In this document: positions 2,991-45,074 of the stretch, in pieces
How positions within the stretch are numbered: position 1 is the first letter of the stretch
How the letters are laid out: every line of letters starts with the position of its first letter
Translations under genes and position numbers: made by a program
Sequence record: OL960577.1
DNA: 64,000 bases
Source: Escherichia phage vB_EcoM_SA35RD
Reading direction: 5' to 3' (one strand)
Notes under the pieces: generated by a model
The model's input: only the letters and a program-made list of their open reading frames with translations
Told to the model about the DNA's origin: nothing
Databases searched by the model: none

Positions 2991-3677
2991 TTAGAAGTCG
3001 TGAGTAGAATCGGCTTCCATCGCAATAACATAACTTACTTGAGAGCTTTCAAACTTGGCTGCAACTTTATCACCGGCTCCCCACAACATTACTTTATAAT
3101 TACCTGGCTGGATTTTCATATTAGCCATATTGATTACGAAGTTAAAGTTGTTAGAACCATCATAATCGGTAAGAGTCAAAGAATACTTAGGACGAGTTAG
3201 TCCAGAATCTTCAACTTTATTATAGCCATTGATAACAATTTTACCATCTTTATTTGTAATAGCAATTGTATCAATCTGAAGACCACGTGAAACTCGAAGC
3301 AATTGTTGAAGGTCTTCAGCTTTAATTTCAGTAATCACAGAAGCCACTGGGAATTGAATTGGCTTATTAGGAAAAACAATGGTGCTCTTGTCAGCGGCAG
3401 GCCAATAAACCGTGGAGCGTGTGTCTGCAATTTTAATATTGCCATCAGTGTGCATTGAAATTTCAGCATCATCAGACACTAGACTCAAAATGCTTAAGAA
3501 GCTATTCAAATCATAAAGTGCTACGTCAAAATCAATTTCATCAGAGATATTTGCTTCCGCATAAGTGGTGCCATTAACTGCACGAGTCATAATAAATTTA
3601 CCTTGACTCAGCAGAATGCCGGAGTTAATAGAGGCAAAGTTTTTCAGAATAGCGATAGTATCTTTAGACAGTTTCAT
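2991..3677 (-). CDS. 45: sliding clamp gp45
   Basis: Track ORF 2991..3692; start set to MKLSKDT with AGGAAA RBS; 228 aa as T4 gp45. Confidence 0.9.
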   Translation of the reverse strand: MKLSKDTIAILKNFASINSGILLSQGKFIMTRAVNGTTYAEANISDEIDFDVALYDLNSFLSILSLVSDDAEISMHTDGNIKIADTRSTVYWPAADKSTIVFPNKPIQFPVASVITEIKAEDLQQLLRVSRGLQIDTIAITNKDGKIVINGYNKVEDSGLTRPKYSLTLTDYDGSNNFNFVINMANMKIQPGNYKVMLWGAGDKVAAKFESSQVSYVIAMEADSTHDF

Positions 3678-3719
3678 TTTATTTCCTTTCAAGACAATTC
3701 AAAGTTTATAACAAATTTA

Positions 3720-4136
3720 TTATGCAGCAACCATCTGCTTTTTAATAGCTTCAGGCAGTGATTCAATATATTCTGGAATTTTAGAGGCAACAATTTCGCC
3801 AGCTGCAATTAGTTGTTCGTCGGCATCAACACAGTAGAAATCTTCCAGACGCTCAGAACCGTCTTTATCAAGAACGATTTTTCCACCAGCTTCAATAGAA
3901 TCTTTATAGTGCTTACGCATCAGATGAATCCACATATCAGATACATCGTTATCAATAAAACCGTAAATCATAAAACGAGTTTCTTGTGGCAAAGATTGGA
4001 GTTTTTTAGCACTTGCGTCATCACAATGCAGGACCCATGCTTTACGAACACGATTATGGTTATGTGGGTTAGCGTCAGTACGGATAGAAGTAACTTTCAG
4101 ATCAGCAGCAGTGAAACCTTTAGCAGTAGTAAACAT
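3720..4136 (-). CDS. rpbA: RpbA-like RNA polymerase-binding protein (tentative)
   Basis: 138 aa ORF at the T4 rpbA position between 45 and 46; assignment by synteny and size only. Confidence 0.45.
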   Translation of the reverse strand: MFTTAKGFTAADLKVTSIRTDANPHNHNRVRKAWVLHCDDASAKKLQSLPQETRFMIYGFIDNDVSDMWIHLMRKHYKDSIEAGGKIVLDKDGSERLEDFYCVDADEQLIAAGEIVASKIPEYIESLPEAIKKQMVAA

Positions 4137-4391: not shown

Positions 4392-6080
4392 TTATGAAAC
4401 AGTCATTACCGTAAATCGTCCAACTTTGCTCATTTGAAGATGTTGTCCATAAGCTTGTGGGTCATGGTCTCTGTGACTAATTATAAACACGTTTGCATCG
4501 GTTAGAGAGTTAAGAATTGTTGAAATAGCTTTAATACCTTCAGAATCAGTCGCGGAATCCATGACTTCGTCCATAATTAATGTATTGATTCTAACACCAG
4601 AGACCTTTTCAGCAATATCTCGCCATGTAAACAACAACGCGATATCGATACGCGCTTTTTCGCCTTGACTAAATGAAGCATAACTGAACTCTTCACGGCC
4701 ACGTGATTTTATAGATTCATTGAATTCTTCGTCAATAGAAAACACGTAATCGGCTTCCATGATTTTAAGATAATGGTTAATCTGCTTATTGAACAAAGGC
4801 ACGTATTTTTTAATGATAGCACCTTTAATACCAGAATCTTTTAACATATCTGTGATAATACCACGATGGTATTTTTCAAGAACGATATCTGATTTTGTTT
4901 TAATGATTTTATCAAGTTCTTTTTGAAGCAAAGCTATCTCATCGGCATGGTCGATAAATTCCGCTGAGGCTTGTTCTATTGCAGCTTTAACTTTCTTAGC
5001 TTTATCAATAGTGGCAATCATTGCTTGTTTCTTGGTACGAATATCAGATGCAAGGTCCTGTTTAGTCTTAACATTAGCTCTATATTCGTCCACTAGGACA
5101 CTCAGATTATCTCTGTGGCAGGTAAGTTGCTCGAATGAGTGATTACATTCATGAAGCTTATCGGTAATCTTAGAGACAATAGGGTCACCCTGGTGCAACT
5201 GTGATGCGCAAGTAGGACATGTACCGCCATCATGATACATCTTAATAACTTTGTTATATGAGTCAATTTTAGATTTAATCAAGAATGCTTCTTGTCCGAT
5301 CTTGTTGAATGCCTCAGTAGGGTCTTCGTCAAGAACGATATTAAGTAGACGCTCGTTAGCTTCTTCAATTTCTGCTTTTAATGAACGAGCTTCTTTGGCT
5401 AGGTCGTCATACATATTCTGTAGACGCGCTACATTATCGCCAGATAATTTCTTTTGACGTTCGATATTCTCGTTATAAATCTTAATTTGTTGGATAATAC
5501 CATCTTTCTTGGCATCGAGAACTTGTCCCTGGGAATTAAGTTCTCGAACTTGAGACTTATTGATTTTATCCATTTCGGCGAGTGTGCCGACTTCTAAAAG
5601 GTCTTCGACAAGTTTTCTACGAGCAGGGGTGCTAAGAGCCATGAAAGGGGTATACCCTGCCGTCCCAAGCACAACGATTTGTTTAAAAGACGCGTATGAC
5701 ATTCCGATGCTACGTTCAAATTCTTCTTGGAAGTCACGACTGCTGGCAGATTCATCAAGACGAACACCGTCAACGGAGATTTCGAAAATATTGGGCTTTT
5801 GGCCTCGTTTAATGAAGTATTTTTTACCATCGAATTCCATCCAAAGCTCAACTAAGAGCTCTTTCTTGTTCGTGCTATTAATGATTTGTCCTTTCTTAAC
5901 ATCACGAAATGGTTTACCGAAAAGTCCGAAAGTAATGGCTTCTAACATCGTAGATTTACCACCGCCATTTTTACCAGTGATTAATGTCTTTTGGACTTTA
6001 TCTAATTGGATATCAATAGGATTCCCACCTACCGACATGATGTTTTGATAACGAACACGATTTAATTTAAATGATTTCAT
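4392..6080 (-). CDS. 46: recombination endonuclease subunit gp46 (SbcC/Rad50-like ATPase)
   Basis: 562 aa; Walker A GKNGGGKST, ABC signature region FSQGEKAR, Walker B LIMDEV, long coiled-coil middle. Confidence 0.9.
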   Translation of the reverse strand: MKSFKLNRVRYQNIMSVGGNPIDIQLDKVQKTLITGKNGGGKSTMLEAITFGLFGKPFRDVKKGQIINSTNKKELLVELWMEFDGKKYFIKRGQKPNIFEISVDGVRLDESASSRDFQEEFERSIGMSYASFKQIVVLGTAGYTPFMALSTPARRKLVEDLLEVGTLAEMDKINKSQVRELNSQGQVLDAKKDGIIQQIKIYNENIERQKKLSGDNVARLQNMYDDLAKEARSLKAEIEEANERLLNIVLDEDPTEAFNKIGQEAFLIKSKIDSYNKVIKMYHDGGTCPTCASQLHQGDPIVSKITDKLHECNHSFEQLTCHRDNLSVLVDEYRANVKTKQDLASDIRTKKQAMIATIDKAKKVKAAIEQASAEFIDHADEIALLQKELDKIIKTKSDIVLEKYHRGIITDMLKDSGIKGAIIKKYVPLFNKQINHYLKIMEADYVFSIDEEFNESIKSRGREEFSYASFSQGEKARIDIALLFTWRDIAEKVSGVRINTLIMDEVMDSATDSEGIKAISTILNSLTDANVFIISHRDHDPQAYGQHLQMSKVGRFTVMTVS

Positions 6081-6325: not shown

Positions 6326-6560
6326 CCTCGATACATGCTTCAGCCATTTTAAGAATAGAGCCAGGAGTATCGTTGTCCATTATATTAAAGCTAAATTCAA
6401 TAGCCCAGTCAGTGCAGACATGAACTGCTTTAACTTCATTGCCTTCAACGCGTAATGGCTCAATCCAATACTTGATAGTGTTCTCGAATCCATCGTCATC
6501 TTTAACGTCCATTTCAACTTCAAGCCTGAGACCAGCATTGTTAAATTCATCTAAAGTCAT
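6303..6560 (-). CDS. hypothetical protein (85 aa)
   Basis: Track ORF between 46 and 47. Confidence 0.5.
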   Translation of the reverse strand: MTLDEFNNAGLRLEVEMDVKDDDGFENTIKYWIEPLRVEGNEVKAVHVCTDWAIEFSFNIMDNDTPGSILKMAEACIEDAYNDED

Positions 6561-7576
6561 TGTGTTGCCTCAATATAAAGTTCGTTGGAATATTTGACCA
6601 GCGCTTCTCTGTCTTCGTCTGAGATATCTGGAATCGCGTCAATATATTCTTTAATGATATCTTGAAGTGATTTAATCTCGATTTCCTGGTCGTCATCAGA
6701 TTCAACACTGTTATCAACTTTAGAAACCATACGAAGAGAGTGAACTACTTTTTCAAGTTCGGATTCAAACTTAGTCAACTCAGAATCAATTTCTGATACT
6801 ATAACACGTACGGCTAGATTAGTATAATCAGAATAATTGATTTTGCCTTTAAACGGATAAGTGATTCGTCGATGCCATGTTGTTTCATTAGGAATAAATT
6901 CCATACGTTCAACATCGGTGTCAAATACCCAGAATCCGCGCGGGTCGTTCTCATCACCTGCAGTAAGGGTCCATGGTGTCCCAATATATTTGACGTTAGC
7001 AGCTTCAGAGATTGTGTGGAAGTGGCCGGACCAGACTTGTTTATAAGTCTTTAAGAAATCAGGTTCAAGCCCATGAGACTTCATCCCTTTATAGAAATAA
7101 AAGCCATTCAGTTCCCAGTGCCCAACACAATACGCAGCAGAAGAAGTCTTGATGTGCTCTAAGATTTCACCTGTATTTTCTTCACACATCCATGGAACGA
7201 TATCAATCAGACATCCGTCAAAATCTACAGTAGTTGGATGCTCGTAAATAGTAAAGTTTTCAAATTGAGTTAACAATTCAGAAACAGTGTTAGGTGTTAT
7301 TGTATTCTTAAACGCCATGTCATGGTTTCCTATCGTGACATGAACGTGAATGCCTGCTTTAGAAATCATATCAACGATTTCACGATTGAATTCCATTGTA
7401 CGATGTGTTATTGCTTTACGGACGTCAAACCAATCACCGTACTGAATCCAAGTTTTAATCCCGTGTTTCTTAGAGTATTCAATTGCTTGACGAATACCAT
7501 CACGTTGAATATCTTGAACCCATGGGTCGTCTTGTTTGACTCCGATATGGAAGTCGCCTAAGTGCAAAATTTTCAT
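6557..7576 (-). CDS. 47: recombination endonuclease subunit gp47 (Mre11/SbcD-like phosphoesterase)
   Basis: 339 aa; MKILHLGDFHIG and GNHD metallophosphatase motifs. Confidence 0.9.
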   Translation of the reverse strand: MKILHLGDFHIGVKQDDPWVQDIQRDGIRQAIEYSKKHGIKTWIQYGDWFDVRKAITHRTMEFNREIVDMISKAGIHVHVTIGNHDMAFKNTITPNTVSELLTQFENFTIYEHPTTVDFDGCLIDIVPWMCEENTGEILEHIKTSSAAYCVGHWELNGFYFYKGMKSHGLEPDFLKTYKQVWSGHFHTISEAANVKYIGTPWTLTAGDENDPRGFWVFDTDVERMEFIPNETTWHRRITYPFKGKINYSDYTNLAVRVIVSEIDSELTKFESELEKVVHSLRMVSKVDNSVESDDDQEIEIKSLQDIIKEYIDAIPDISDEDREALVKYSNELYIEATQ

Positions 7577-7589
7577 ATTATTTCCTCAT

Positions 7590-7625
7590 TAGTTAATTCA
7601 TTCTATCATCCGTTTATAAAGCAAA
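7590..7625 (-). promoter_or_regulatory. possible MotA-type middle promoter upstream of gene 47
   Basis: Minus-strand TTGCTTTATAAA (MotA-box-like) followed about 13 nt later by TAGAAT, directly upstream of gp47 start. Confidence 0.35.
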
Positions 7626-7648
7626 AAAAGGAACTCCGAAGAGTTCCT
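7622..7648 (-). terminator. rho-independent terminator (minus strand)
   Basis: Perfect hairpin AGGAACTC-cgaa-GAGTTCCT; T-run follows on minus strand. Confidence 0.6.
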
Positions 7649-7650
7649 AT

Positions 7651-7821
7651 CCACATAGTACACCGTACAGAGGCTCATTTGAACTTTTAAATCGAATGGG
7701 CTTGTATGTAATAGTTCCTTCGGCTTTAGCTTTATCATAAGACTCTTTAAAACGTCTCATTCTTTCTGCTTTGCCTTTACGGATTTTATCGAAATTTTCA
7801 GAAGTCGGGATGTTCGTCATG
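7651..7821 (-). CDS. hypothetical small basic protein (about 56 aa)
   Basis: Hand-translated ORF MTNIPTSENFDKIRKGKAERMRRFKESYDK..., GAGAGG RBS; below track size cutoff. Confidence 0.3.
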
Positions 7822-7859
7822 CATAAGCACCTCTCAGAAAATGCCTAAATCAATTTCTC

Positions 7860-8081
7860 TCATCGTTTCCACCATTTCTTAACTTGAAATGAATCAACCC
7901 ACACGAGTTGTTTTGGGTCTGCCTTTACAATAGGCGGACAAATTTCTGTAATAGAACCGTCGTGATATTCCTTTTCAGAAATTTTAACACAAAGAGGACC
8001 TCCCAATTTAAGGGTGAACCCTGCGTTCAGCTTCAGACGTTTAAACTTTGTTTGAACTAGCGCCATTAATGATGTCCTCAA
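7860..8081 (-). CDS. hypothetical protein (73 aa)
   Basis: Track ORF; occupies the locus where T4 carries a-gt. Confidence 0.4.
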   Translation of the reverse strand: MRTSLMALVQTKFKRLKLNAGFTLKLGGPLCVKISEKEYHDGSITEICPPIVKADPKQLVWVDSFQVKKWWKR

Positions 8082-8364
8082 TAGCCTGACGAGTAGTAAC
8101 CCACTGGATTTTAATTAACTTGTCATTATATGGTTGTCGTAGAATATCCCGAGATTTCTTAATAGCATATTCGTAAGCTTCGAAGTTGTTTTGAATTGCT
8201 GCTTCTTGAGCATGAGCATAAAGACGGTTTAGTTCAAAACGATTCTTTTTAAGAATCTTTTCGGATTTTTTACGTGCTTCAGCTTCATTTTTCTTTTGGA
8301 TTTCTTGTAGCATTTTAGCTACTGCATCTTCTGCTTCTTTATTTTCAATAATCTCGGTAGTCAT
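8041..8364 (-). CDS. hypothetical protein (107 aa)
   Basis: Track ORF, charged helical sequence. Confidence 0.45.
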   Translation of the reverse strand: MTTEIIENKEAEDAVAKMLQEIQKKNEAEARKKSEKILKKNRFELNRLYAHAQEAAIQNNFEAYEYAIKKSRDILRQPYNDKLIKIQWVTTRQAIEDIINGASSNKV

Positions 8365-8365
8365 A

Positions 8366-8575
8366 TTATCTCATTAAATTAAAATAAAAACGTCCATCCT
8401 CTTCAATACAGAACTCATATTCAACTGGAGTCCCGTTTATCGAAAATGACACGTCATGTGGGTTCAAAGGGTCGATGTCAAAATTAATTTTAAATTCACG
8501 ACCCAACAGTTTTACCAAATAAGGGATTGCTTCGTCAAAAGGTTCTTCTAAGTAGTTAGAGATGTCAATTGTCAT
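8366..8575 (-). CDS. hypothetical protein (about 70 aa)
   Basis: Track ORF 8366..8659 trimmed to Met at 8575/8581 because upstream part overlaps gp55. Confidence 0.4.
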
Positions 8576-9140
8576 CCTCATATAAAAAATCCAAACTAGG
8601 CGAATCGCTAACAACTTCCTTCTTTTCAGCCCCAGGAGCTTTATAAGCGGATTCTTCATAATGCGTCATTTTATCGTAGATGTCTTGAATAAACGTTTCA
8701 TCTACCAACGCTACCATATCATCGTCATGGCTGTCGTAGACATTATGAACGAAGTAACTATATTTCTTTGCAACTTCCTTACGTTCTTTTTTGATACGTT
8801 GGACAAAAGCATTAAAACAAGCTCGAGTTATGTATGCATGTGGGTTATTGTACTTAGTTTCGTCGAAATTATGAAGTCCCTTAATAGAGGCTTCAATCCC
8901 ATCTGCAATCATCTCCTGCTTCCAAGACTGGGTATATCCTGAAAAGTTGAAACGTTTGGACAGGCCTTCGGCGATAAGCATAATTGCTAAACCGATGGTA
9001 TCATTCTGACGAATAATTTTGTTTGGGTCTTTATTATTTAAGAGCTCCTTTTTCCACTCGATTATAGCGGCGAGAAGCTCTTTATTATTCACATAGTTAT
9101 TTTTAGGTTTTTGTTCAGTCATAAGTACCTCTTGGCTCAA
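8565..9140 (-). CDS. 55: late-transcription sigma factor gp55
   Basis: [31 protein letters not shown]...[35 protein letters not shown] matches T4 gp55; start may be 9140 or 9122. Confidence 0.85.
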
Positions 9141-9194
9141 TTCATAGGTCTATTATATCATAATATTTAGAGACCTATCTTAAAGCACGAGATA

Positions 9195-9464
9195 CTATCG
9201 GAGCAAACAATAAGCCTGAAACACTTTTTCCATTAAACGTTTGAACTCATGGATATCGATATAAAGCTCAGTAAGACCGGCATTATAAAGAAAATCTAAA
9301 AAGTTCTCATGTGTTTCGTTATAGTCGCCTTCGTTTAATTGAGATACATGAGTTTCCCAAAAACCAACACCTTTAACGAATGGAAAATACGTGACTTTCA
9401 TGTATTCGTCAACATAAAATTCGCCCAGCTTTTCTTCAGTTATACTGATTCGAGTTAATTTCAT
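9195..9464 (-). CDS. hypothetical protein (89 aa)
   Basis: Track ORF. Confidence 0.45.
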   Translation of the reverse strand: MKLTRISITEEKLGEFYVDEYMKVTYFPFVKGVGFWETHVSQLNEGDYNETHENFLDFLYNAGLTELYIDIHEFKRLMEKVFQAYCLLR

Positions 9465-9688
9465 TCTAGTTCCTTTGCTGCTTCAAGAGCAGCATCCAGC
9501 GAATCAAATTGGTCAACGAAATCAATATTCAACGCATCGTCAACCGTAGCATATAACCACCATTGTTTGAATTCGTATTCTAGAATAAATCCAGGACCTT
9601 CAATCTGAGGAAGACCTAGACTATTTGTACCAACTTCGTAACCAGCTAGACGCAGGTCATTAATCAAAGTTTCTGTTAATACGCTCAT
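9461..9688 (-). CDS. hypothetical protein (75 aa)
   Basis: Track ORF, stop overlaps next start. Confidence 0.45.
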   Translation of the reverse strand: MSVLTETLINDLRLAGYEVGTNSLGLPQIEGPGFILEYEFKQWWLYATVDDALNIDFVDQFDSLDAALEAAKELE

Positions 9689-10017
9689 TTTACCGCCTTA
9701 ACAATTTTAAGGTCAACGAATTTTTTCTTACGTTGATTTTTCATACGACGGATAGTCTTTTCAGAGATTTCATGTTTCTGATAAGCTTTAGATTCAACAC
9801 CAAATGCAGCAACGTCAAATTCAGAAAGAATATATTGTACTAGAATTTCACGAATAGAATTACGTCCAATTTTCTGGTCGTGTTTTTGCATGATTTCATA
9901 AAGACGGAATTCCCACGCGTCAAGAACTTGAGGAGTAACAATATTGCCGGATTCCAGAAGAGCAACAACTTTATCGAAAGCGAAAGAATTAACTACGTTT
10001 TTGATTTTAGTAGACAT
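9685..10017 (-). CDS. hypothetical protein (about 110 aa)
   Basis: Track ORF 9685..10065; start moved to ATG at 10017 with GAGGAAAATAAT RBS, downstream of early promoter. Confidence 0.45.
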   Translation of the reverse strand: MSTKIKNVVNSFAFDKVVALLESGNIVTPQVLDAWEFRLYEIMQKHDQKIGRNSIREILVQYILSEFDVAAFGVESKAYQKHEISEKTIRRMKNQRKKKFVDLKIVKAVK

Positions 10018-10054
10018 ATTATTTTCCTCGGTTATTTTATTATCCAACGAGAGA

Positions 10055-10083
10055 ATTATACTCATCTCTCAAGAGTTTGTATA
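10055..10083 (-). promoter_or_regulatory. early promoter cassette (-35 TATACA, 17 nt, -10 TATAAT) with inverted repeat GAGAGA/TCTCTC around -10
   Basis: Read directly; near-identical copy at 40640..40668. Confidence 0.5.
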
Positions 10084-10323
10084 TTATTTTTTAAGCATGA
10101 AAAGTAAGTAATTTGTATCACGTGGAGTAATATCAACACCCATATCAAAGACGCCTTTATAGATTGGGTATTTGTTTTCGGTTGTATCGAAGCTGAAACT
10201 ATTTCCATCACAACTAACAGTAATAACATCTGTTAAAATGTCATACTCAATCCTAACAATTGAATCCCCAATTTTAACGTCGAGGTGTTTTTTGAATTTG
10301 ATAAAATCTAATTCTTGGGCCAT
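10084..10323 (-). CDS. hypothetical protein (79 aa)
   Basis: Track ORF. Confidence 0.45.
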   Translation of the reverse strand: MAQELDFIKFKKHLDVKIGDSIVRIEYDILTDVITVSCDGNSFSFDTTENKYPIYKGVFDMGVDITPRDTNYLLFMLKK

Positions 10324-10386
10324 GATATTTTACTCATTTTAAGACGATAGGAAGATAATAACATGTCTTCCTATCGTTGTACATTA

Positions 10387-10599
10387 TTAACCGAACTTTT
10401 TAGCGCCTTTCCAGCCTTCATACATAACTGCACAAGTCAATAGTACAGCGTGCTGGCATTCTTTGTATTTGTAAACCCAGAACCAGCGTAAGAAGTCTTC
10501 ATCCTCAACGCCGTTGAGTTTCATATTGGCAAAGAATTCTGCACGTTCTTCACGAAGCTTTTGCGATAACATAGATTCAGGATTCATTTTGTGTTCCAC
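10387..10599 (-). CDS. hypothetical protein (70 aa)
   Basis: Track ORF. Confidence 0.4.
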   Translation of the reverse strand: MEHKMNPESMLSQKLREERAEFFANMKLNGVEDEDFLRWFWVYKYKECQHAVLLTCAVMYEGWKGAKKFG

Positions 10600-14840: not shown

Positions 14841-15310
14841 TTTAAACTCTTTCTAAGCTGCTTTTTGAATGAAGCTATTAATTGTGTTTTAGTATCAGAT
14901 TCATTATATTCAAATCCTCTTTGAAGCATCTCGGACATCATTTCCTCTTTACCTAGTCTTGAGAACTCTTTAGTTTTGTCTGGAACAAAATTAGGATGGA
15001 TATTATTATCAGAATAATCTTGTTTCAAATAAGCAAGAAGAGATTCAAGCCATTCGAGGTAGTCGACATCACGACCTTTAAGACCAGAACGGTTGAACTT
15101 ATGCTTCATTTGGCCTTCTGCTGCGTTGCACAGATTACAGAGTAACCCACGAACTCTACCTGCTTTTGGCCCGTTTAATTCGTGGTCGTGGTCAAGATGG
15201 TTACCTTGAACATCAGGGTCTAATTCACGGTGGCAAATAGGACACTTACCGTTCTGTGCATCATAAAATTTTTGTTTTTCTTCTTTGTATAATTTGCCAG
15301 ATAATAACAT
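14837..15310 (-). CDS. 49: endonuclease VII (Holliday junction resolvase) gp49
   Basis: 157 aa; KCPICHREL...HLDHDHELNGPKAGRVRGLLCNLCN zinc/H-N-H-like motif matches T4 endo VII. Confidence 0.85.
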   Translation of the reverse strand: MLLSGKLYKEEKQKFYDAQNGKCPICHRELDPDVQGNHLDHDHELNGPKAGRVRGLLCNLCNAAEGQMKHKFNRSGLKGRDVDYLEWLESLLAYLKQDYSDNNIHPNFVPDKTKEFSRLGKEEMMSEMLQRGFEYNESDTKTQLIASFKKQLRKSLK

Positions 15311-21673: not shown

Positions 21674-22675
21674 TTATTTCAGTAAAGTTACTTCAGAGAT
21701 TTCCTCCCAACCATCTTTATCAGTTGAAATAAAATCTGCTACATAAAGAGCGGTACGTAATGATACATTGCGAAGACGAGATACATTAGCCTTCATCCAG
21801 GACAATGCTTTATACGTTTCTGCATCAGTCAGACCACGTTTCTGCATCATGTCAGTAGATAATATTACATCTTCAACTCGAACCATAATCTCTTCATTAG
21901 AGTGTACTCCAAGGTCGAGATACACTGAGCGAGATACTAAAGCTTGAAGGTGTGGAGCAAGTTTCGAACCGCGTTCTAACTCTTTATCGATATCAACGTT
22001 TGTAATGAAAACGATAGTACCTTCAAACTCAAATTCTTTATCAATACCCTTATCATCGAGATAAGATGACGCAGTGCTCCAACAAACTTTGCGTTTATCA
22101 CCGGTATCTAATGCTGCTTTAAGAAGGTTCAGGATGTCCATATCTGAGAATACGTCAACGTCATCGATTAAGAGAACGCTGTCTGCATCACGGTTGAGCC
22201 AAAGTTGTTCGTAAAGGCCAATACCAGAGATTTTACCATTAATGCTTTTGTATTTGATGAAACCATTATCATTAGCATTATTAAGTGCTTTATCCAGAGA
22301 ATACGTCTTACCAATACCGGCTGCACCTGAAATAATGAGTGAACGAATTTTGCCATCGATAATGCCATTCGTCATCATGTTCATTACTTTAAAGCGTTTG
22401 TTGATACGAGTTTTCATATCTTCAGTGCTTTCAACAACTGCAACTGGTGATGTCTCAACTCCTTCCATTACGATGTCTGATTTGAAGACCCATACTCCAC
22501 GTTCAGAACCATCAATCATAACGAAAATTTTACCGTCACCTAAGTGGGAACATTCAGGATTAAGCTTTGCTGGGAACCAGGTCTTTGTGGCAACATAAGA
22601 ACCAGAGATTTCGTTATTACGATAGATACCTTTTTTGATTTGAACGTTGAACATTTTATTCTCCAATTTACTCAT
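21674..22675 (-). CDS. P-loop ATPase (Walker A/B), function unknown
   Basis: 333 aa; Walker A SGAAGIGKT, Walker B LLIDDVD. Confidence 0.6.
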   Translation of the reverse strand: MSKLENKMFNVQIKKGIYRNNEISGSYVATKTWFPAKLNPECSHLGDGKIFVMIDGSERGVWVFKSDIVMEGVETSPVAVVESTEDMKTRINKRFKVMNMMTNGIIDGKIRSLIISGAAGIGKTYSLDKALNNANDNGFIKYKSINGKISGIGLYEQLWLNRDADSVLLIDDVDVFSDMDILNLLKAALDTGDKRKVCWSTASSYLDDKGIDKEFEFEGTIVFITNVDIDKELERGSKLAPHLQALVSRSVYLDLGVHSNEEIMVRVEDVILSTDMMQKRGLTDAETYKALSWMKANVSRLRNVSLRTALYVADFISTDKDGWEEISEVTLLK

Positions 22676-23085: not shown

Positions 23086-24075
23086 TTATTTATAGTAAGA
23101 ATTATGATTTTCGAGATAGACTTGCTCAAGGAAATCATCCCAGAAACTCATATCTACTTTTTGTTGCATACCATTCTTGGCAGCTTGTTCTGACGCATGT
23201 TCAACTTGGTCAACGATATCTTCTAGGAATTCTTGTACAGTTTTAAACGTATGTTTACCAAGCTTAACATCGAGAATAAATGGAGCATCCTGAAGTGGGT
23301 AAACCAGGTCGCCGGTTTTGTAAATTTCCAATAATTGAAGTCCACCACGACACGCATGACTCAATGCTTTCCAGTCAATACCTTCGTTAGCTTCTGCCTT
23401 ACGAGCACGTTCACCATAGTTCTCTTCCAGTTTAACCAAGATGGCATTGAACTCTTTATTGGTTAACGTGTCTTGGAATTTACGGTCTAACAGATTATAG
23501 AATGTTTGCTTACCTGTTTTCTCGTTTTCGGTTTCAACCCACGAAGCAAATTCACCTATAGGCAGAACATTCTTCATATGTGATAAACGAATTACTGCAC
23601 CGTTATCAAAGTATTGTCCCCATTCATTAGAACGTTTAAGGGCTTGACGAAGAACAGCCAGTCGAGAACCCTTGACACCATATTTAGAAGCTTGCTTACG
23701 GACGTACCCTAAATAAGATTTCATGTTAGTGGTATAGAAACGAGACCTGTTATCTTGAATATACTTCCATACATCAGGCAAATCAGATTTAACTACTAAA
23801 CTTTGTGGAGTGTGAAGCATATCTAATGCGACAGTTTCACCGTCCGCAGCTAGTTTAAAGAAATATTTGAGACTATACAACTCATGGTCCACGTCGTCTT
23901 TTGTGTTCTTAGAAGATGTGTTATTCGTGTTCTTGCTCATATGTTCTTTAACGTTACCGGTCAAGATATCACGAGCATGAGGGACATAAATTTCTTTAAA
24001 ATCAACGTCAGATTCTGGGGTAGACGTTCCATAAAGGTGGCTACCAAAGTAGCCTTTCATAATTGTTTTCATCAT
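23086..24075 (-). CDS. putative nucleotidyltransferase-fold protein (329 aa)
   Basis: N-terminal GSHLYGTSTPESDVDF fits the Pol-beta-superfamily G-S-x(9-13)-D-x-D motif; otherwise uncharacterised. Confidence 0.45.
   Translation of the reverse strand: MMKTIMKGYFGSHLYGTSTPESDVDFKEIYVPHARDILTGNVKEHMSKNTNNTSSKNTKDDVDHELYSLKYFFKLAADGETVALDMLHTPQSLVVKSDLPDVWKYIQDNRSRFYTTNMKSYLGYVRKQASKYGVKGSRLAVLRQALKRSNEWGQYFDNGAVIRLSHMKNVLPIGEFASWVETENEKTGKQTFYNLLDRKFQDTLTNKEFNAILVKLEENYGERARKAEANEGIDWKALSHACRGGLQLLEIYKTGDLVYPLQDAPFILDVKLGKHTFKTVQEFLEDIVDQVEHASEQAAKNGMQQKVDMSFWDDFLEQVYLENHNSYYK
23087..23094 (-). promoter_or_regulatory. late promoter TATAAATA upstream of secreted small protein
   Basis: Forward tatttata, about 33 nt upstream of start at 23054. 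Confidence 0.5.
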
Positions 24076-27945: not shown

Positions 27946-28424
27946 TCAACAATCACAATTTCTAGTTTAGTAGAATACGTATCTAAAATCTCTTCGATGA
28001 CATCCCAGTTTCCACCACCAATACCTGCACCAATTCTTGGCATATAAATTACAGGCTTTATTATCTTATTCTTTCCGAATTCATTTAATTCTATTATACA
28101 ATTCATTAAAGCATAGTACTCAAAATTAGGTCCCGGCTCAAACTGTGTATAAAGATTAAAGCAATAAGCTTTATGGGTCTTAAAATATTTTTCATAAACC
28201 GAATAAGTCCCGAGTTTAGACTCGTCTCCGAATTCGGTTTGAAGTTTATCGGCTTCCAGAATTTTTGGATAAGCCTTTGCTAATTGTCCTGCCACACCGG
28301 CGCCCATTGTATGAAAACAATTACACCCATGAGCAATATTATTACCTTTAGAAAACAGGGCGACAATATCGCCCTTGATGTAGTTTTTAATCACTTGCTG
28401 CAAGTCCTCTATTATAAGAGTCAA
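27927..28424 (-). CDS. hypothetical protein (165 aa), possibly macro-domain-like
   Basis: NIAHGCNCFHTMGAGVAGQL loosely resembles macro-domain N-x-A...G-G-V motif; weak. Confidence 0.35.
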   Translation of the reverse strand: MTLIIEDLQQVIKNYIKGDIVALFSKGNNIAHGCNCFHTMGAGVAGQLAKAYPKILEADKLQTEFGDESKLGTYSVYEKYFKTHKAYCFNLYTQFEPGPNFEYYALMNCIIELNEFGKNKIIKPVIYMPRIGAGIGGGNWDVIEEILDTYSTKLEIVIVDWEPLL

Positions 28425-31823: not shown

Positions 31824-32126
31824 TTATTTACCTTTAATTACTTTAGCTGCTTCGATAGCCGCTTGCTGAAGGTCATCCATAGACATACCGAATTTAGAAG
31901 CAAAGTTATCAATTTTCTTTTCGACAGCATTCAAAGGCTTGGCCTGTTTACCTTCATTAGCGCCAGGAAGAGCGAGAATACGCTCTTTGTCAATATAAAG
32001 GCTTACAAGTTTCTTACGGTCTTTATCGGACAAATCATGAAATGAATGGGCCTTTTTATTTATAGCGGCTTCTAATTTACCTGCACTCACTCGAGCTTCA
32101 GTAATAAATTCTTGATATGTTTTCAT
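31824..32126 (-). CDS. internal (capsid-targeted) protein, IPII-like
   Basis: N-terminal capsid targeting sequence MKTYQEFITE; 100 aa. Confidence 0.65.
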   Translation of the reverse strand: MKTYQEFITEARVSAGKLEAAINKKAHSFHDLSDKDRKKLVSLYIDKERILALPGANEGKQAKPLNAVEKKIDNFASKFGMSMDDLQQAAIEAAKVIKGK

Positions 32127-32151: not shown

Positions 32152-32466
32152 TTATTCTTTAGGGAAGTTTTTAGAGTATGCATCATAAAGTTTATTACCA
32201 ATACGGCGGAAGACTTTAGCTGCAAAACGGTTTTCAGGGTTTTTAATCATGATTTGCATCATGTAAGTTCCTGCATCCGAAAGAGCTTCTTCATAGTACC
32301 CATTAATTTCTTTAAGAGTCCTACGTTTACCACCAGGACCATCAACAGTAATTTTCCATTTACCTGTAGAAGTGCGGCTCGGTGGCTCAACTTGTTCAAT
32401 CCAAATATAACCACCTTCAACGCGTTGGTTGGCGGATTCTGCAATAAATTCTTTATACGTTTTCAT
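32152..32466 (-). CDS. internal (capsid-targeted) protein
   Basis: N-terminal MKTYKEFIAE; 104 aa. Confidence 0.6.
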   Translation of the reverse strand: MKTYKEFIAESANQRVEGGYIWIEQVEPPSRTSTGKWKITVDGPGGKRRTLKEINGYYEEALSDAGTYMMQIMIKNPENRFAAKVFRRIGNKLYDAYSKNFPKE

Positions 32467-33268: not shown

Positions 33269-33541
33269 CTATTTTTCTGAAGCGCCTGAAATATATTTTT
33301 CAAGACGTTGTTTCATCAGCGAGCCGTTCTTAGCGATTTCTTCTGGTTTATCGCACATACGCAACAAGGCTTCAAGCTTAGCGATATCGCTGGTACGTTC
33401 AAATTTGCGAGTATCTATCTTACTAGCAAGTTCAGAAATACGTGCTAATAGACTTTCAGCTTCAACCAAAGCTGCACCTAGCTTAGTTGCAAATGTGTCA
33501 GTAGCTTCGTTAAGAATAGATTCTGATAAAAATTCACTATA
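33269..33541 (-). CDS. internal (capsid-targeted) protein
   Basis: Track ORF 33269..33565; start set to [10 protein letters not shown]. Confidence 0.6.
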   Translation of the reverse strand, partial: YSEFLSESILNEATDTFATKLGAALVEAESLLARISELASKIDTRKFERTSDIAKLEALLRMCDKPEEIAKNGSLMKQRLEKYISGASEK

Positions 33542-33546
33542 TGTTT

Positions 33547-34035
33547 TCATATATACGCTTTCCAAGTTCCTGTTTTAAATGTTGAGATTACGCGTTTCGC
33601 GCGATTAGGTGTCTGACGATACCATTTAGATTGAGCTAGATTTACTGCCGCTTCATCCCAACGTTTCTGTTTAAGCATACGAAGAGAATTAGTAAAACCG
33701 GCGACTCCTGCTACACCCATTTGGAAGACCATATTGACCAATGCACACCGACGAACTGCATCTAAAGAATCATATACCGGTTTAAGTTTAGCATTACCCA
33801 AGATTCCGCGAACGGCTTTATCAACGTCTTCATTAAATAGCTTTTCAGCCTCATCAAGGGTAATTGTACCGTTGCATTTACGACCGATCATTCTGTCAAG
33901 TTCAGCTTTAGCTACGGCTAAAGACGGGTTCTTTGTTACCAAGTGGCCTATGCCAATCGTCCAAAAGCCTTCAGTGTCTTTGTATAAAGTCAGTCTAAGA
34001 CCTTCGTCATTACGAAGCATTTCAAATATATTCAT
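33547..34035 (-). CDS. e: lysozyme (endolysin) e
   Basis: [32 protein letters not shown] matches T4 lysozyme; catalytic Glu/Asp region present. Confidence 0.9.
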
Positions 34036-38659: not shown

Positions 38660-39015
38660 TTTCTACATTCCTTAATAAAGTTTTCGATTGTTTCATTTTC
38701 ACGTCTAGCTAGGAGTTCATTATAACTAATCATTTGAGAAGCGTAAACCTTTTTATTTTTCTTGTTATGGTTTATAAAATCGTAGTAAAAATAGACTACA
38801 GTACAAAATGATGCGATGGATGCAAAGGCTTGGGTATACCGTAAGTCCTGCCATTGGTCTGTGAATCCACCAGTGTTCCCTATAAATCCTAACACAACGC
38901 CGTCAATAAGAAATCCAACTAATCCAAAGGCAAATCCCATGCCAATACTCATAATAAAAATTAGAATGTTCTCACCAAGAGAAGGCCATACGGTTAAGAG
39001 TTGAGGCTTTTGCAT
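38656..39015 (-). CDS. hypothetical membrane protein (119 aa), C-terminal ENFIKECRK tail
   Basis: Two or three hydrophobic spans. Confidence 0.5.
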   Translation of the reverse strand: MQKPQLLTVWPSLGENILIFIMSIGMGFAFGLVGFLIDGVVLGFIGNTGGFTDQWQDLRYTQAFASIASFCTVVYFYYDFINHNKKNKKVYASQMISYNELLARRENETIENFIKECRK

Positions 39016-39975: not shown

Positions 39976-39996
39976 AAGGAGGACCGGGGTCCTCCG
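39973..39996 (-). terminator. terminator hairpin GGAGGACC-gg-GGTCCTCC
   Basis: Perfect 8-bp stem; T-run follows on minus strand. Confidence 0.5.
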
Positions 39997-40003
39997 TATT
40001 ATT

Positions 40004-40597
40004 TTATTTCAAAGAGTTAATATATTCTTGTACATCAGCAGAAGTGGTTTCGACACCTGCTGGAGTGCCATTGAACGTTTCAACCCGAGTCAGAGTGTCT
40101 TCGATATCAACCTTAGTCAGTGCAGCGATTTCAATTACATCATCGGCCGTAGAGATACCAAGGGCATTAGCTGCTCGAGTTTCACGAATGTATTCGAGTT
40201 TGATTGCCAGATTCTGACGAGCATCATCAAGTTCAACCACCTTACGAGCAATTTCAATTCGCATAGCGGCATACCCGTCAGCTTTTGTATTAAGTTGTTC
40301 GGCAGTTCGACGATACAGAAGACCAAGCTTAGCATGCATGGTAACATCTTGTCCTTCAGCCAGGAGCTTACGAATTTCACGTTCCTTAGAAGCGGCTTGC
40401 TTGTTCTTTTCAATAACAAGTTCGCGAATACGTTTTTCTTCATTAATAGATTTAACAGAAGCCGTTTTTAGTTCTTTGATTTGGGTAATCAACTTATCTG
40501 CAGCTGCGTTATACTGTTCTTCGACAGTCAGATTTTTAGCCATAGCAGTACCCAGTTTAGTGCGAATGAATTCAACAAGTTTCTTCAGTGTGTTCAT
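40004..40597 (-). CDS. hypothetical coiled-coil protein (about 197 aa)
   Basis: Track ORF 40004..40612 uses TTG; ATG at 40597 follows AGGT RBS; architecture vaguely PspA-like. Confidence 0.5.
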
Positions 40598-40639
40598 ATT
40601 ATTACCTTTCAATTGGTGGTTTATTATCCAACGAGAGCA

Positions 40640-40668
40640 TTATACTCTGCTCTCAAGAGTTTGTACAC
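40640..40668 (-). promoter_or_regulatory. early promoter cassette (-35 TGTACA, 17 nt, -10 TATAAT) with GAGAGC/GCTCTC inverted repeat
   Basis: Near-duplicate of 10055..10083 with compensatory A:T to C:G change. Confidence 0.5.
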
Positions 40669-40919
40669 TTATTTGTACGAATTAATAATCTCTTCCATTT
40701 TATCCAGAACATGGATATCGATTATACGAGGAAGTGCCGAAAGATTAGAACCGTCGAAAGATTTAAGGTCTTCCAAAATAATATTTTCAATGGCCTTTAA
40801 AGCTTCCGCAGATTCTGATGCAGAATTAAATTCAGGAATTTCTCCAAAAAGACGTAAGAATGAACCAAAGTATTCTGCGGCGATTTCTTTAGCTTGTTCG
40901 ATATCAGACTTAAACATTT
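40669..40919 (-). CDS. hypothetical acidic protein (about 83 aa)
   Basis: Track ORF 40669..40950; start set to MFKSD after GAGGAAA RBS. Confidence 0.45.
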
Positions 40920-40945
40920 TGTTTTCCTCATTTGTTGGTGGAGTA

Positions 40946-40974
40946 ATCATATCACCATCCTTGGCGTTTGTACA
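40946..40974 (-). promoter_or_regulatory. early promoter cassette (-35 TGTACA, 17 nt, -10 TATGAT) with CACCA-agga-TGG hairpin
   Basis: Read directly. Confidence 0.45.
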
Positions 40975-41202
40975 TTATTTTTTAATCAAGTTGACATAAA
41001 ATTCTGCATCTTCAGGGTGCATGCCTTCGCAGTATTCTTCAACCATGAACTTCTTAACAGCTTCATAAGGACCACTCAGATTAAGCTCAGTTGTCCAGAA
41101 CTTGGAATCTTGGACTGAATCGATATGAACTTCAGGGTGTCGGTTGCGAATAACTTCTTCGGTGTATTCATAATCAACGACATCAATACTAACTTTAGCC
41201 AT
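40975..41202 (-). CDS. hypothetical protein (75 aa)
   Basis: Track ORF. Confidence 0.45.
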   Translation of the reverse strand: MAKVSIDVVDYEYTEEVIRNRHPEVHIDSVQDSKFWTTELNLSGPYEAVKKFMVEEYCEGMHPEDAEFYVNLIKK

Positions 41203-41909: not shown

Positions 41910-42374
41910 TTATTTAATTTGTTTAGCAGACCAGATACGGTCTTTAATAAGTTTTTGGATATCTTCAACATACTCAAGGCTATGAGCGTGAGGATTATCT
42001 TTGAAGCTATGTGCTCGTGCCAGTTTCTGGCCTTCTGTTTTGATTACTAAAAGCTCTTTAAGAATTGCTTCATACTTAGAAATAATTCCTTTGGCGATAT
42101 TTTTTTCTTGAGCTGCTTTAGGGTCTGTTTTTGGCGCAGGTGCTTTACCTGTAGCTTTCTGGAACAATTCACCTGATGCAGCTAGGCTTTTAAAAACTCG
42201 GCTAACAGTATTAGCATTAGTAAAACCTTCGGCTTTAAAATCTCTAATAAAACGGAAACGTTCTTCATCAGAGGCGTCTTTGTAAGAATATTTACCTGCT
42301 TGAATTGCTGCAATCGCAGCGGCTTTTACATCTGAACTAGATTGTTCAGTCAAAAATTCAGCGTATGATTTCAT
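41910..42374 (-). CDS. internal (capsid-targeted) protein (154 aa)
   Basis: N-terminal MKSYAEFLTE capsid-targeting-like leader. Confidence 0.55.
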   Translation of the reverse strand: MKSYAEFLTEQSSSDVKAAAIAAIQAGKYSYKDASDEERFRFIRDFKAEGFTNANTVSRVFKSLAASGELFQKATGKAPAPKTDPKAAQEKNIAKGIISKYEAILKELLVIKTEGQKLARAHSFKDNPHAHSLEYVEDIQKLIKDRIWSAKQIK

Positions 42375-43279: not shown

Positions 43280-43358
43280 TAAATAACTTTCTATTATGAA
43301 AGGCACTTTAGAGCACCTTTGGTAATAGAGGGTATGAATTAATAATATCACATTATTC

Positions 43359-43874
43359 TTAAAGCAAATCAATCATTTTAACAGTCGGCAAAACGATTTC
43401 TTCTTCAATATAAGCGAATTCAACACGTTCAACTACACGCAAGAAATCATAGTCGTAGTATTCAGAAGCATAGCCAAGAATATCAATAAGGCCTTTGGAT
43501 ACCTCATCACCTTTCACAAAGAACAGGTCGAATACACGGGCTTCGTCTTCTTCAGATTTATCGCCAAGGTCAACTTCAATACCAAAGACCTTTTTAATGA
43601 ATTCCGGCTGGAGCTGGTCAGAGAACAGTCCTTCAACCAGATATTCGTAGATAATAAGCGAGCAACGACCGAATGGCGTATTACCACAGTAACGTTCGGC
43701 TTTAGTGCTGGAATGACGACTCTTAAATTTCTTCAAGAGATATTTAAACTGTTGGAGCTCATGCTCTTCTACACCAAATAATGTTTTGGTTTTATAGTTG
43801 TCACCGTCATTTTCCCAAGTAGTGACATCAATTACGTAACCCTTAGGAATTGTACTGCCTAAACAAATATTCAT
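43359..43874 (-). CDS. hypothetical protein (171 aa)
   Basis: Track ORF. Confidence 0.5.
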   Translation of the reverse strand: MNICLGSTIPKGYVIDVTTWENDGDNYKTKTLFGVEEHELQQFKYLLKKFKSRHSSTKAERYCGNTPFGRCSLIIYEYLVEGLFSDQLQPEFIKKVFGIEVDLGDKSEEDEARVFDLFFVKGDEVSKGLIDILGYASEYYDYDFLRVVERVEFAYIEEEIVLPTVKMIDLL

Positions 43875-44786: not shown

Positions 44787-45074
44787 TTACAGAAGAGTTT
44801 TTGCAATAATTTTAAGCTGAGCTACAGAAATGTGCTTAGTTTTAAACAGTGCAGTCTCTTCAGCCGGAGAGATAACAATAGTAGCGCCATCTTTCTTAGC
44901 AGACCATCCATCCCCTAAGTAAACAGTACCTTTTACTTCTTCGCCGTCAACCAGACTAATCATTGGTTTACCCTCACGTCCTTTATTTGCTTTAATAACT
45001 TCGGAAGTAAGGGTTGCTTCGGTTAGAGTAGAAACGTTAGCATCAGGTGATATAAATTCTTTATAGGTTTTCAT
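44787..45074 (-). CDS. ipI: internal protein I (IPI-like)
   Basis: 95 aa; MKTYKEFIS leader; position next to 57B as in T4; body resembles IPI as I recall it. Confidence 0.7.
   Translation of the reverse strand: MKTYKEFISPDANVSTLTEATLTSEVIKANKGREGKPMISLVDGEEVKGTVYLGDGWSAKKDGATIVISPAEETALFKTKHISVAQLKIIAKTLL

Follow-up and report, generated by a model that had tools for sequence, protein, structure and literature searches.

Cytosine modification in RB69 and its relatives

Phage RB69 has no homologue of a-gt, b-gt or ba-gt by BlastP, and it carries arabinose on a modified cytosine (PMC6024577). It was initially described as ara-hmC; since a revision of 2026 it is given as mono- and poly-arabinosyl-5-hydroxycytosine, with arabinosylated cytidines fully replacing cytidine in RB69 DNA (PMC13326640). 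The makers of arabinosyl-5-hydroxycytosine are gp48, gp46:47, gp3 and gp50-55 (PMC13326640). In RB69, gp48 is a ThyA homologue and 5-hydroxy-dCMP synthase, gp46:47 and gp3 are arabinosyltransferases, and gp51, gp52:53 and gp55 are products of UDP-arabinose genes. Arabinosylated cytosine is also attributed to phages Bas46 and Bas47 by Mahler et al. 2025, as cited in PMC12923530. These two phages escape Brig1, an alpha-glucosyl-hmC glycosylase (PMC11078745), and are only mildly affected by CMoRE (PMC12923530).

Much of the genetic layout discussed here is likewise on record. The RB69 entry (NC_004928, 2003 annotation) already names RB69p067-070 a-gt.2 to a-gt.5 and gives the gene order, while the absence of a-gt, b-gt and ba-gt from RB69, as well as the use of arabinose by this phage, were published in 2018 and refined in 2025-2026. 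In T4, a-gt.2 to a-gt.5 follow one another in this order too, with a-gt/mobB on one side and gene 55 on the other.

The DNA analysed is a 64,000-nucleotide stretch of Escherichia phage vB_EcoM_SA35RD (OL960577.1), termed the window below, and positions are counted from its first letter. Taken as a whole, its 47-55 region is very probably an RB69-type interval without the a-gt cassette, in a lineage that uses arabinosylated 5-hydroxycytosine.

Layout of the gene 55-gene 47 interval

Positions 7577-8565 are exactly the space between the gene 47 start codon (ATG at 7576, minus strand) and the gene 55 stop (8565). An earlier note, made from the sequence alone, had described small ORFs, a terminator and no glucosyltransferase here, and this description stands: the interval holds four minus-strand ORFs of 57, 68, 107 and 69 aa, the largest being the one of 107 aa, and one intrinsic terminator. 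The features of the interval and its borders are as follows.

6557-7576, minus strand: gene 47, which borders the interval downstream; 339 aa, SbcD-like subunit of a recombination nuclease
7577-7646, no strand: junction where the window has just 70 nt of regulatory DNA and T4 has about 2.3 kb with mobB, a-gt and 47.1; from T4 annotation and sequence comparison
7581-7587, minus strand: Shine-Dalgarno GAGGAAA of gene 47, 4 nt upstream of the ATG at 7576; read from sequence
7600-7625 (or 7626), minus strand: predicted MotA-type middle promoter of gene 47 (P47 homologue); motif and T4 homology
7622-7648, minus strand: predicted intrinsic terminator closing the 55 to a-gt.2 unit, overlapping the a-gt.2 stop codon; terminator scan and fold
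7647-7820, minus strand: a-gt.2 orthologue, 57 aa, basic (pI 9.8), DUF5486 (Pfam E 4.5e-28)
7860-8066, minus strand: a-gt.3 orthologue, 68 aa, basic (pI 9.8), PHROG 1648 (E 2e-34)
8041-8364, minus strand: a-gt.4 orthologue, 107 aa, all-helical, DUF2654 (Pfam E 1e-27)
8366-8575, minus strand: a-gt.5 orthologue, 69 aa, acidic (pI 4.2), DUF5491 (Pfam E 5e-13); 11 nt at its start are shared with the end of gene 55
8565-9122, minus strand: gene 55, which borders the interval upstream; 185 aa, sigma factor of late transcription

The border genes are readily recognized. The gene 47 product shares 76% identity with T4 gp47 and 100% with RB69 gp47 (PHROG 100, E 1.6e-135), and the gene 55 product shares 91% with T4 gp55 and 99.5% with RB69 gp55 (PHROG 234, E 4e-68). 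Judged by sequence, the four small ORFs are orthologues of T4 a-gt.2, a-gt.3, a-gt.4 and a-gt.5 (E 4e-28 to 2e-15 against the T4 proteins). Identities to the T4 and RB69 counterparts are 76% and 95% (RB69p067) for a-gt.2, 71% and 100% (RB69p068) for a-gt.3, 58% and 100% (RB69p069) for a-gt.4, and 45% and 100% (RB69p070) for a-gt.5. The family scores exceed the curated cut-offs, given in brackets, for DUF5486 (97 bits; 27), DUF2654 (97; 25) and DUF5491 (50; 27), and a Pfam scan finds no family for a-gt.3.

By the same comparisons, the T-even gene 55-gene 47 interval is here in its standard Mosigvirus (RB69-type) form; the earlier note had found the layout consistent with RB69-type phages. It shows 98% DNA identity to RB69 39992-40978, and its proteins are 95-100% identical to RB69p067-070. 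The gene order of RB69 p066-p071 (47, a-gt.2, a-gt.3, a-gt.4, a-gt.5, 55) and the lengths of the small genes (174, 207, 324 and 210 nt) are identical to those in the window, and the differences amount to three amino acids in a-gt.2 and about 2% nucleotide divergence. The window as a whole is colinear with RB69 32416-92995. Mosigvirus-classed phages such as NBG1 (H2) match the interval region at up to 99.3%, and Bas47, which is the phage AlbertHofmann (PMC8594841), matches positions 6500-9200 at 99.0%. In total, 135 phage records match 6500-9200 at 95% identity or more, the best 40 spanning the 2.7 kb without interruption.

Shared with T4 are the flanking genes, the four small ORFs and their order, the UUCG hairpin behind a-gt.2 and a middle promoter of the same type ahead of gene 47. 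The true difference is that three genes which add about 2.3 kb in T4 are missing here, and the window contains none of them: the HNH homing endonuclease gene mobB, the alpha-glucosyltransferase gene a-gt (GT-B fold), and 47.1, a 46-aa membrane ORF.

Predicted terminator and middle promoter at the junction

On the minus strand, gene 55 is followed by the tightly packed small genes a-gt.5, a-gt.4, a-gt.3 and a-gt.2, which are conserved across T4-like phages. This unit would end at the intrinsic terminator, immediately beyond which a MotA-dependent middle promoter would drive gene 47.

The terminator stem, AGGAACTC/GAGTTCCT, has 8 bp with 4 G-C pairs at 7629-7648, and it is closed by a UUCG loop and followed by T7. 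It has the form of a predicted Rho-independent terminator, in which a G+C-rich stem-loop leads straight into a U run where a transcription unit ends. A terminator is annotated at this site in phage NBG1, and a hairpin is kept there in 18 distinct T4-like sequences with differing stems (GGAGC/GCTCC, AAGGAAGC/GCTTCCTT, AAAGGGC/GCCCTTT and GGGAGCC/GGCTCCC). The free energy in an 81-nt context is unexceptional against shuffles (z = -1.47), so that the predicted terminator is supported by form and conservation, not by energy.

The MotA middle promoter consensus is (a/t)3TGCTTtA, placed 12+/-1 bp from a -10 element TAtaaT (PMC2988021). The motif before gene 47 matches this consensus, with a MotA box TTTGCTTTA / TTTTGCTTTA, 11 nt, and then TAGAAT, and the predicted start lies near 7593. 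Across the window this pattern is found 8 times, where 1.9 occurrences are expected. In T4, the mapped starts of P47 (36576) and PmobB (38682) fall on the homologous elements, and the promoter is probably active in this phage, given its motif and its homology to these mapped T4 promoters.

Distribution of a-gt and the history of the junction

An IMG/VR survey covered 33 T4-like loci, of which 31 are informative. The gene a-gt is missing at the junction in 25 of the informative loci, all of which have both gene 55 and gene 47, and it is present in only six, namely five T4-type loci and L034. Absence is thus the common state at this junction. Nearly all 33 loci contain the a-gt.5/.4/.3 block, and the junction cargo in other T4-like phages includes 47.1, GIY-YIG-like ORFs and 110-aa ORFs. 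With T4 a-gt as the query, tblastn detects matches in 657 phage records, about 500 of them Tequatrovirus-type at 90% identity or more and about 143 Klebsiella-type near 66%, and gives no match in RB69 1-93000 or JK45 1-33000 (best E 0.03).

In T4, near-identical elements consisting of a UUCG hairpin and GCTTTATA flank the mobB/a-gt/47.1 cassette on both sides. The hairpins were compared by eye, and a MAFFT alignment of the three junction sequences mis-registers them. In T4 and its close kin, the cassette is self-contained, with a middle promoter, mobB, a-gt, its own UUCG hairpin and 47.1, and it is placed so that the a-gt.2 terminator lies on one side and the promoter of gene 47 on the other. 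Its two flanks are copies of the same "hairpin + TGCTTTA...TAnnnT" element, and the window would represent the unoccupied form of this insertion point.

The direction of the evolutionary event at the junction is an inference. One possibility is secondary loss, in which an ancestral a-gt cassette was deleted in Mosigvirus through the flanking hairpin/promoter repeats after the switch to arabinosylation. The near-identical elements on both sides of the T4 cassette would permit such a clean deletion, and two fairly distant groups both have a-gt at this junction, the T4-type phages and L034 (56%) together with Klebsiella phages (near 66%). However, a-gt is lacking in 25 of the 31 informative loci, at gp55 identities of 49-83% and in the Mosigvirus-type L005 and L006 as well, so many independent losses would be needed. 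Moreover, the junction takes unrelated cargo (GIY-YIG ORFs, 110-aa ORFs, 47.1), which fits repeated gain at a hotspot, and no remnant of a-gt is found in the 70-nt junction of the window. Loss is judged rather unlikely.

Glucosyltransferases and arabinosylation genes

A glucosyltransferase hidden elsewhere in the window was considered as well. No relative of T4 a-gt is found by tblastn in the interval or in the whole 64-kb window (best E 0.53), a Pfam scan of ten large uncharacterised window ORFs finds no glycosyltransferase domain, and PDB sequence searches with the four largest window ORFs lacking an informative family are empty. Outside the interval, short replaced segments set the window apart from RB69, and all segments without an RB69 match are below 650 bp and therefore too short for a transferase gene. 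A hidden glucosyltransferase was rejected on the tblastn, Pfam and segment results, which is an exclusion at the sequence level.

The earlier note had taken the absence of a-gt as implying a modification repertoire unlike that of T4. The step is weak: absence at this locus does not prove another chemistry, because 25 of the 31 informative loci lack a-gt and T4 beta-gt lies elsewhere. The conclusion itself holds up, by way of published experiments on near-identical relatives and not by way of the 47-55 locus, and a repertoire unlike T4's means a different sensitivity to modification-dependent defences.

In the relatives, the arabinosylation genes occupy two places, one beside rIIA, far from the window, and one in the stretch from uvsX to gene 43. 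As the window begins within gene 43, with the uvsX-gene 43 cluster just upstream, the modification genes are not visible in it. RB69p003 and p045-p055 have no match within the window, none of the genes of the arabinosyl-5-hydroxycytosine system lies in the 47-55 interval, and of the pathway enzymes listed, the window contains only the shared dNMP kinase (gene 1, 45842-46576). JK45 matches RB69p003 and p045-p055 at 97-100%. The genomes closest to the window show 97.5-98.7% DNA identity to it, and all six contigs carrying its exact gp62 allele (6/6, in that same range) show this interval in the same form, lacking a-gt. In all six, the stretch from gene 43 to uvsX encodes a SIS isomerase, a 561-aa NTP-transferase, a 128-aa ORF, a Peptidase_U32, a Thymidylat_synt homologue and two further ORFs of 299 and 182 aa. 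The system known from RB69 and Bas46-47 is one of the same genus, with its genes present in these relatives directly upstream of where the window starts. From this it appears probable that the phage carries the arabinosylation cluster and the corresponding chemistry. Its lineage makes no glucosyl-hydroxymethylcytosine; as published for RB69 and Bas46/47, cytosine is replaced by arabinosylated 5-hydroxycytosine, which is built by a thymidylate-synthase homologue, two arabinosyltransferases and a UDP-arabinose pathway, and such a phage would not need a-gt.

The gene 42/uvsX and rIIA regions lie beyond the window, which leaves room for a glucosyltransferase there, for example of the beta-gt/ba-gt type at the gene 42 locus, through which the phage would still glucosylate its DNA. 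This is very improbable, since that locus holds the RB69 arabinosylation cluster in every close relative examined, BlastP finds nothing homologous to a-gt, b-gt or ba-gt in RB69 (PMC6024577), and RB69 cytidine is wholly replaced by arabinosylated forms (PMC13326640). The earlier note had called for a search for glycosyltransferase genes and had named a glucosyltransferase elsewhere in the genome, together with T4-like glucosylated hydroxymethylcytosine in virion DNA, as the finding that would speak against it. The sequence searches show none in the window; elsewhere in the genomes of relatives there are indeed transferases, but they are arabinosyl-, not glucosyltransferases.

As a separate observation, a candidate capsid-targeting N-terminus of the T4 type occurs on five window ORFs, compared to three internal proteins in T4. 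This gives some basis to the suggestion that more proteins are injected than in T4.

The small genes a-gt.2 to a-gt.5

The names of these genes are positional only, and no tie of the ORFs to glucosylation has been demonstrated. Pfam assigns them to DUFs only, PHROGs list them as "unknown function", and PDB-sequence profile searches with the four ORFs (alignments of 9-12 homologues) give nothing below E 0.009. A sub-match of a-gt.2 to a PHROG labelled head maturation protease spans only 34 residues and was set aside as an annotation artefact. The single-sequence AlphaFold model of a-gt.3 is unusable (pLDDT 44). The most widely conserved of the four, a-gt.4, has a predicted model of four helices (pLDDT 75) with no significant match among PDB folds (best E 4), and among viral models it finds only its own uncharacterised family in T4-like phages of Serratia, Acinetobacter and Aeromonas. 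The sole mention of a-gt.2 to a-gt.5 found in the literature lists a-gt.4 as a conserved ORF without function (PMC1524935).

The earlier note's wording that small ORFs stand here "instead" of a transferase is wrong, because the same four are conserved neighbours in T4 too. That they functionally replace the transferase, as another modification or anti-restriction module, is suggested by position only, as they sit where a T4-minded reader expects a-gt and three of the four are small, charged proteins without assigned function, but it is almost certainly false and already refuted by the co-occurrence of all four orthologues with a-gt in T4, by their conservation in phages of glucosyl, arabinosyl and other chemistries, and by the lack of a transferase or nucleotide-sugar signature in any of them. 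As a-gt.2 to a-gt.5 are kept beside gene 55 whatever the cytosine chemistry, they might instead serve late-transcription or replication-coupled functions, and not modification.

Implications for T4-like phages

The terminator and middle-promoter element after a-gt.2 may be a conserved "landing pad", and recombination between its copies may shuttle MotA-driven cassettes such as a-gt, mobB, GIY-YIG endonucleases, 47.1 and 110-aa ORFs. The landing pad and a non-modification role of a-gt.2 to a-gt.5, taken jointly, are a tentative proposal and a rather doubtful one. If it is true, DNA-modification genes such as a-gt would be swappable accessory cargo, and the junction would be a middle-promoter counterpart of the PeSL system. 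PeSLs are reportedly composite promoter-terminator cassettes of T4-like phages, defined with early promoters. The likeness is that a terminator hairpin joined to a promoter borders a variable cassette on either side, with cargo that differs between phages, whereas the promoter here is a MotA-box middle promoter and not an early one; the comparison is by description.

The RB69-type reading of the interval also has a value for annotation, in that a phage with such an interval can be classed as RB69-type. This classification predicts arabinosylated 5-hydroxycytosine and resistance to alpha-glucosyl-hmC defences such as Brig1. It further predicts DNA that would be a poor substrate for enzymes recognizing glucosyl-hmC, which is relevant to the choice of therapeutic phages.

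Organization of the 47-55 Interval

From gene 46 to gene 55, every gene in the region is encoded on the minus strand:

4392-6080, minus: gene 46
between gene 46 and gene 47, minus: 46.1 and 46.2
6557-7576, minus: gene 47
between gene 47 and the 57-aa ORF: intergenic stretch of 70 nt
7629-7648, minus: terminator found by scan (8-bp stem, UUCG loop, T7 tail), overlapping the stop codon of the 57-aa ORF
7647-7820, minus: a-gt.2 orthologue, 57 aa (BLASTP 76% to T4 a-gt.2)
7860-8066, minus: a-gt.3 orthologue, 68 aa (BLASTP 71% to T4 a-gt.3)
8041-8364, minus: a-gt.4 orthologue, 107 aa (BLASTP 58% to T4 a-gt.4)
8366-8575, minus: a-gt.5 orthologue, 69 aa (BLASTP 45% to T4 a-gt.5)
8565-9122, minus: gene 55

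The span 7577-8565 is exactly the gap between genes 47 and 55 and, as the earlier note had read it, holds small ORFs and a terminator without a transferase. The note also held that these ORFs stand instead of the T4 alpha-glucosyltransferase gene (a-gt), which proved mistaken. Comparison by BLASTP with the T4 proteins encoded in the corresponding region reveals one-to-one orthology of the four small ORFs with T4 a-gt.2 to a-gt.5, and the gene order in the T4 record is 47, 47.1, a-gt, mobB, a-gt.2, a-gt.3, a-gt.4, a-gt.5, 55; T4 therefore has both the transferase and the small ORFs. Missing from the window compared to T4 are 47.1, a-gt, and mobB (~2.3 kb), for which tblastn gave no match across the whole 64 kb (best E 0.3-1.1).

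Such an a-gt-less interval is ordinary and well documented among RB69-type phages. RB69 32416-92995 is colinear with the window, which starts inside gene 43 (3-935 codes for the last 311 residues of the protein, with 100% identity to RB69 gp43), and the interval DNA is 98% identical to RB69 39992-40978. In the RB69 record, RB69p067-070 are named a-gt.2, a-gt.3, a-gt.4, and a-gt.5; they equal the window's proteins in length and are 95%, 100%, 100%, and 100% identical to them, so the arrangement was already present in the annotated reference genome. Across window 6500-9200, 135 phage records are at least 95% identical, the top matches being a20 and NBG1 (99.3%), the latter a Mosigvirus according to its own record. 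AlbertHofmann, which is Bas47 in the BASEL collection (PMC8594841), is 99.0% identical.

Distribution of a-gt at the Junction

Lack of a-gt at this junction is the usual condition, T4 being the exception. An IMG/VR scan with gp55 yielded 33 T4-like loci, nearly all of which contain the block a-gt.5, a-gt.4, a-gt.3, and usually a-gt.2. Only in five T4-type loci, whose gp55 is 91% identical to the window's, and in L034, whose a-gt is 56% identical to that of T4, does a-gt lie between a-gt.2 and gene 47; another 25 have genes 55 and 47 and lack it. Other phages have nothing at this junction, or 47.1, GIY-YIG-like ORFs (loci L014, L018, and L022), or 110-aa ORFs. Within the GenBank phage set, homologues of T4 a-gt are found in 657 records, essentially the Tequatrovirus group (at least 90%) and Klebsiella phages (near 66%). 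There is none in RB69 1-93000 or in 1-33000 of Shigella phage JK45.

In L022, a duplicated gene 47 5′ end (MKIIQSGDWHLGVKNDD...) precedes the GIY-YIG-like ORF (coordinates involved, 8600-8749 and 8707-9381), and the full gene 47 is at 9378-10391. This looks like the footprint of a homing-endonuclease insertion.

Regulatory Elements at the Junction

Along the minus strand, the 70-nt junction begins with the terminator AGGAACTC-UUCG-GAGTTCCT and T7, continues with TTTTGCTTTA, an 11-nt spacer, and TAGAAT, and ends with GAGGAAA before the gene 47 ATG. A terminator is annotated at the same place in phage NBG1. Eighteen distinct T4-like sequences retain the hairpin downstream of a-gt.2 despite changes in its stem sequence, which points to a genuine structural element, although the energy of its fold in context does not stand out (z = -1.47). 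The TTTTGCTTTA-11 nt-TAGAAT arrangement fits the published consensus, a MotA box (a/t)(a/t)(a/t)TGCTTtA placed 12+/-1 bp from the -10 element (PMC2988021). The pattern TGCTTYA-N11-13-TANNNT occurs eight times in the window, six of them on the minus strand, compared to 1.9 expected from shuffles, and these are candidate middle promoters of the phage:

1013-1038, plus
4906-4930, minus
7600-7623, minus, at the gene 47 junction
14903-14928, minus
28088-28113, minus
43342-43366, minus
57572-57597, minus
62361-62385, plus

T4 has this hairpin/middle-promoter composite twice on the minus strand of its locus (5683-5735 and 3577-3625), once after a-gt.2 (GGAGC-UUCG-GCTCC ... TTGCTTTA-N12-TAAAAT) and once after a-gt (AAAGGGC-UUCG-GCCCTTT ... 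AGCTTTA-N12-TATAAT). The points 7 nt downstream of the two -10 elements, T4 positions 38682 and 36576, coincide exactly with the published middle-promoter starts PmobB (38682) and P47 (36576) (PMC2988021 Table 1). Since the composite is found on both flanks, the T4 cassette of PmobB, mobB, a-gt, and hairpin is bounded by repeats of one regulatory module. It is placed between the a-gt.2 terminator and P47, whereas in the window that terminator directly adjoins the P47 homologue. This layout resembles that of PeSLs, the promoter-terminator shuffling cassettes reported for T4-like phages (PMC2839356, PMC4122927). PeSLs were reportedly defined with early promoters; the predicted promoter at this junction is middle-type.

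The Four Small Proteins

The small proteins belong to DUF5486 (a-gt.2), PHROG 1648 (a-gt.3), DUF2654 (a-gt.4), and DUF5491 (a-gt.5); the first three are basic (pI 9.1-9.8) and the last acidic (pI 4.2). There is an 11-nt overlap between the start of a-gt.5 and the end of gene 55 and a 26-nt overlap between a-gt.3 and a-gt.4, which suggests that expression of the small ORFs is coupled to gene 55. Profile searches of PDB sequences gave no functional lead, nor did fold searches with an AlphaFold model of a-gt.4 (four helices, pLDDT 75). A 2006 list of ORFs conserved between T4 and five diverse T4-like genomes includes a-gt.4, without a function (PMC1524935). Conservation across phages with differing cytosine chemistries argues against a glycosylation role. 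Our best guess is that these would be small accessory proteins from the prereplicative period, expressed together with the late sigma factor.

Other Variable Loci

Five minus-strand ORFs of 93-154 aa start with the T4 internal-protein capsid-targeting motif MK[TS]YxEF; T4 has three internal proteins.

31824-32126, minus: first ORF, in RB69-unmatched segment 31750-32095
32152-32466, minus: second ORF
33269-33550, minus: third ORF
41910-42374, minus: fourth ORF, in RB69-unmatched segment 41799-42419
44787-45074, minus: fifth ORF

As the first and fourth lie in segments unmatched in RB69, the packaged-protein set varies even among Mosigviruses. Close relatives of the window carry one or the other of two ORFs that it lacks: an additional 238-aa ORF between genes 46 and 45.2, on the opposite strand (L041 and L043, 6818-7534), or a 286-aa ORF at the position of 46.1 (L044, 5027-5887). 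Neither has a Pfam match on record.

DNA Modification and Restriction

A Pfam scan of ten large window ORFs that lack an obvious T4 function revealed no glycosyltransferase domain in any of them; its hits were DUF7235, RlaP nucleotidyltransferase, DUF7275/7277, dNMP kinase, and weak AAA/HTH. Searching PDB sequences with four of these ORFs gave no match. Window segments without an RB69 match are all <650 bp. Two homologues named from the RB69 annotation lie on the minus strand: nrdC.11 (23086-24075) has an RlaP/pol-beta-type nucleotidyltransferase domain (E 6e-13), and nrdC.10 (21674-22675) gives weak AAA/STAND NTPase and HTH signals, all below Pfam cut-offs.

RB69 is without a homologue of a-gt, b-gt, or ba-gt, and its DNA was found to carry arabinose, not glucose, with ORF003c proposed as the transferase (Thomas et al., PMC6024577). 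Lee et al. (2026) revised this chemistry to mono-/poly-arabinosylated 5-hydroxycytosine: in RB69 numbering, gp48 is a ThyA homologue producing 5-hydroxy-dCMP, gp46:47 and gp3 are arabinosyltransferases, gp51, gp52:53, and gp55 lead to UDP-arabinose synthesis, and gp45 is a kinase (PMC13326640). In RB69 and JK45 these genes are found beside rIIA and in the stretch from uvsX to gene 43, which places them upstream of the window's first position; the window itself has no match to any of them. With 97.6% identity over 25 kb, JK45 is the sequenced relative nearest to the window, and it carries every one at 97-100% identity. All six contigs encoding the window's exact gp62 (97.5-98.7% identical to the window) have the same a-gt-less interval and, between uvsX and gene 43, the cluster in full. 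With the genes upstream of the window and relatives this close, we strongly infer, rather than observe, that vB_EcoM_SA35RD carries the arabinosylation system.

At 2520-2930, JK45 also has a 130-aa fragment that matches part of the RB69p003 arabinosyltransferase with 99% identity and adjoins the full-length copy (3023-4123); this looks like partial tandem duplication of a DNA-modification gene.

Published results fit the altered restriction susceptibility that the earlier note had anticipated. Brig1, which excises alpha-glucosyl-hmC, restricts Bas35-45 and not the RB69-type Bas46/47 (PMC11078745); CMoRE cuts glucosyl-hmC T4 DNA well and Bas46/47 DNA poorly (PMC12923530); and RB69 DNA shows strong resistance to type II enzymes (PMC13326640). 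The note's end conclusion, a DNA modification different from that of T4, is thus correct and already published, and its framing was wrong in one respect.
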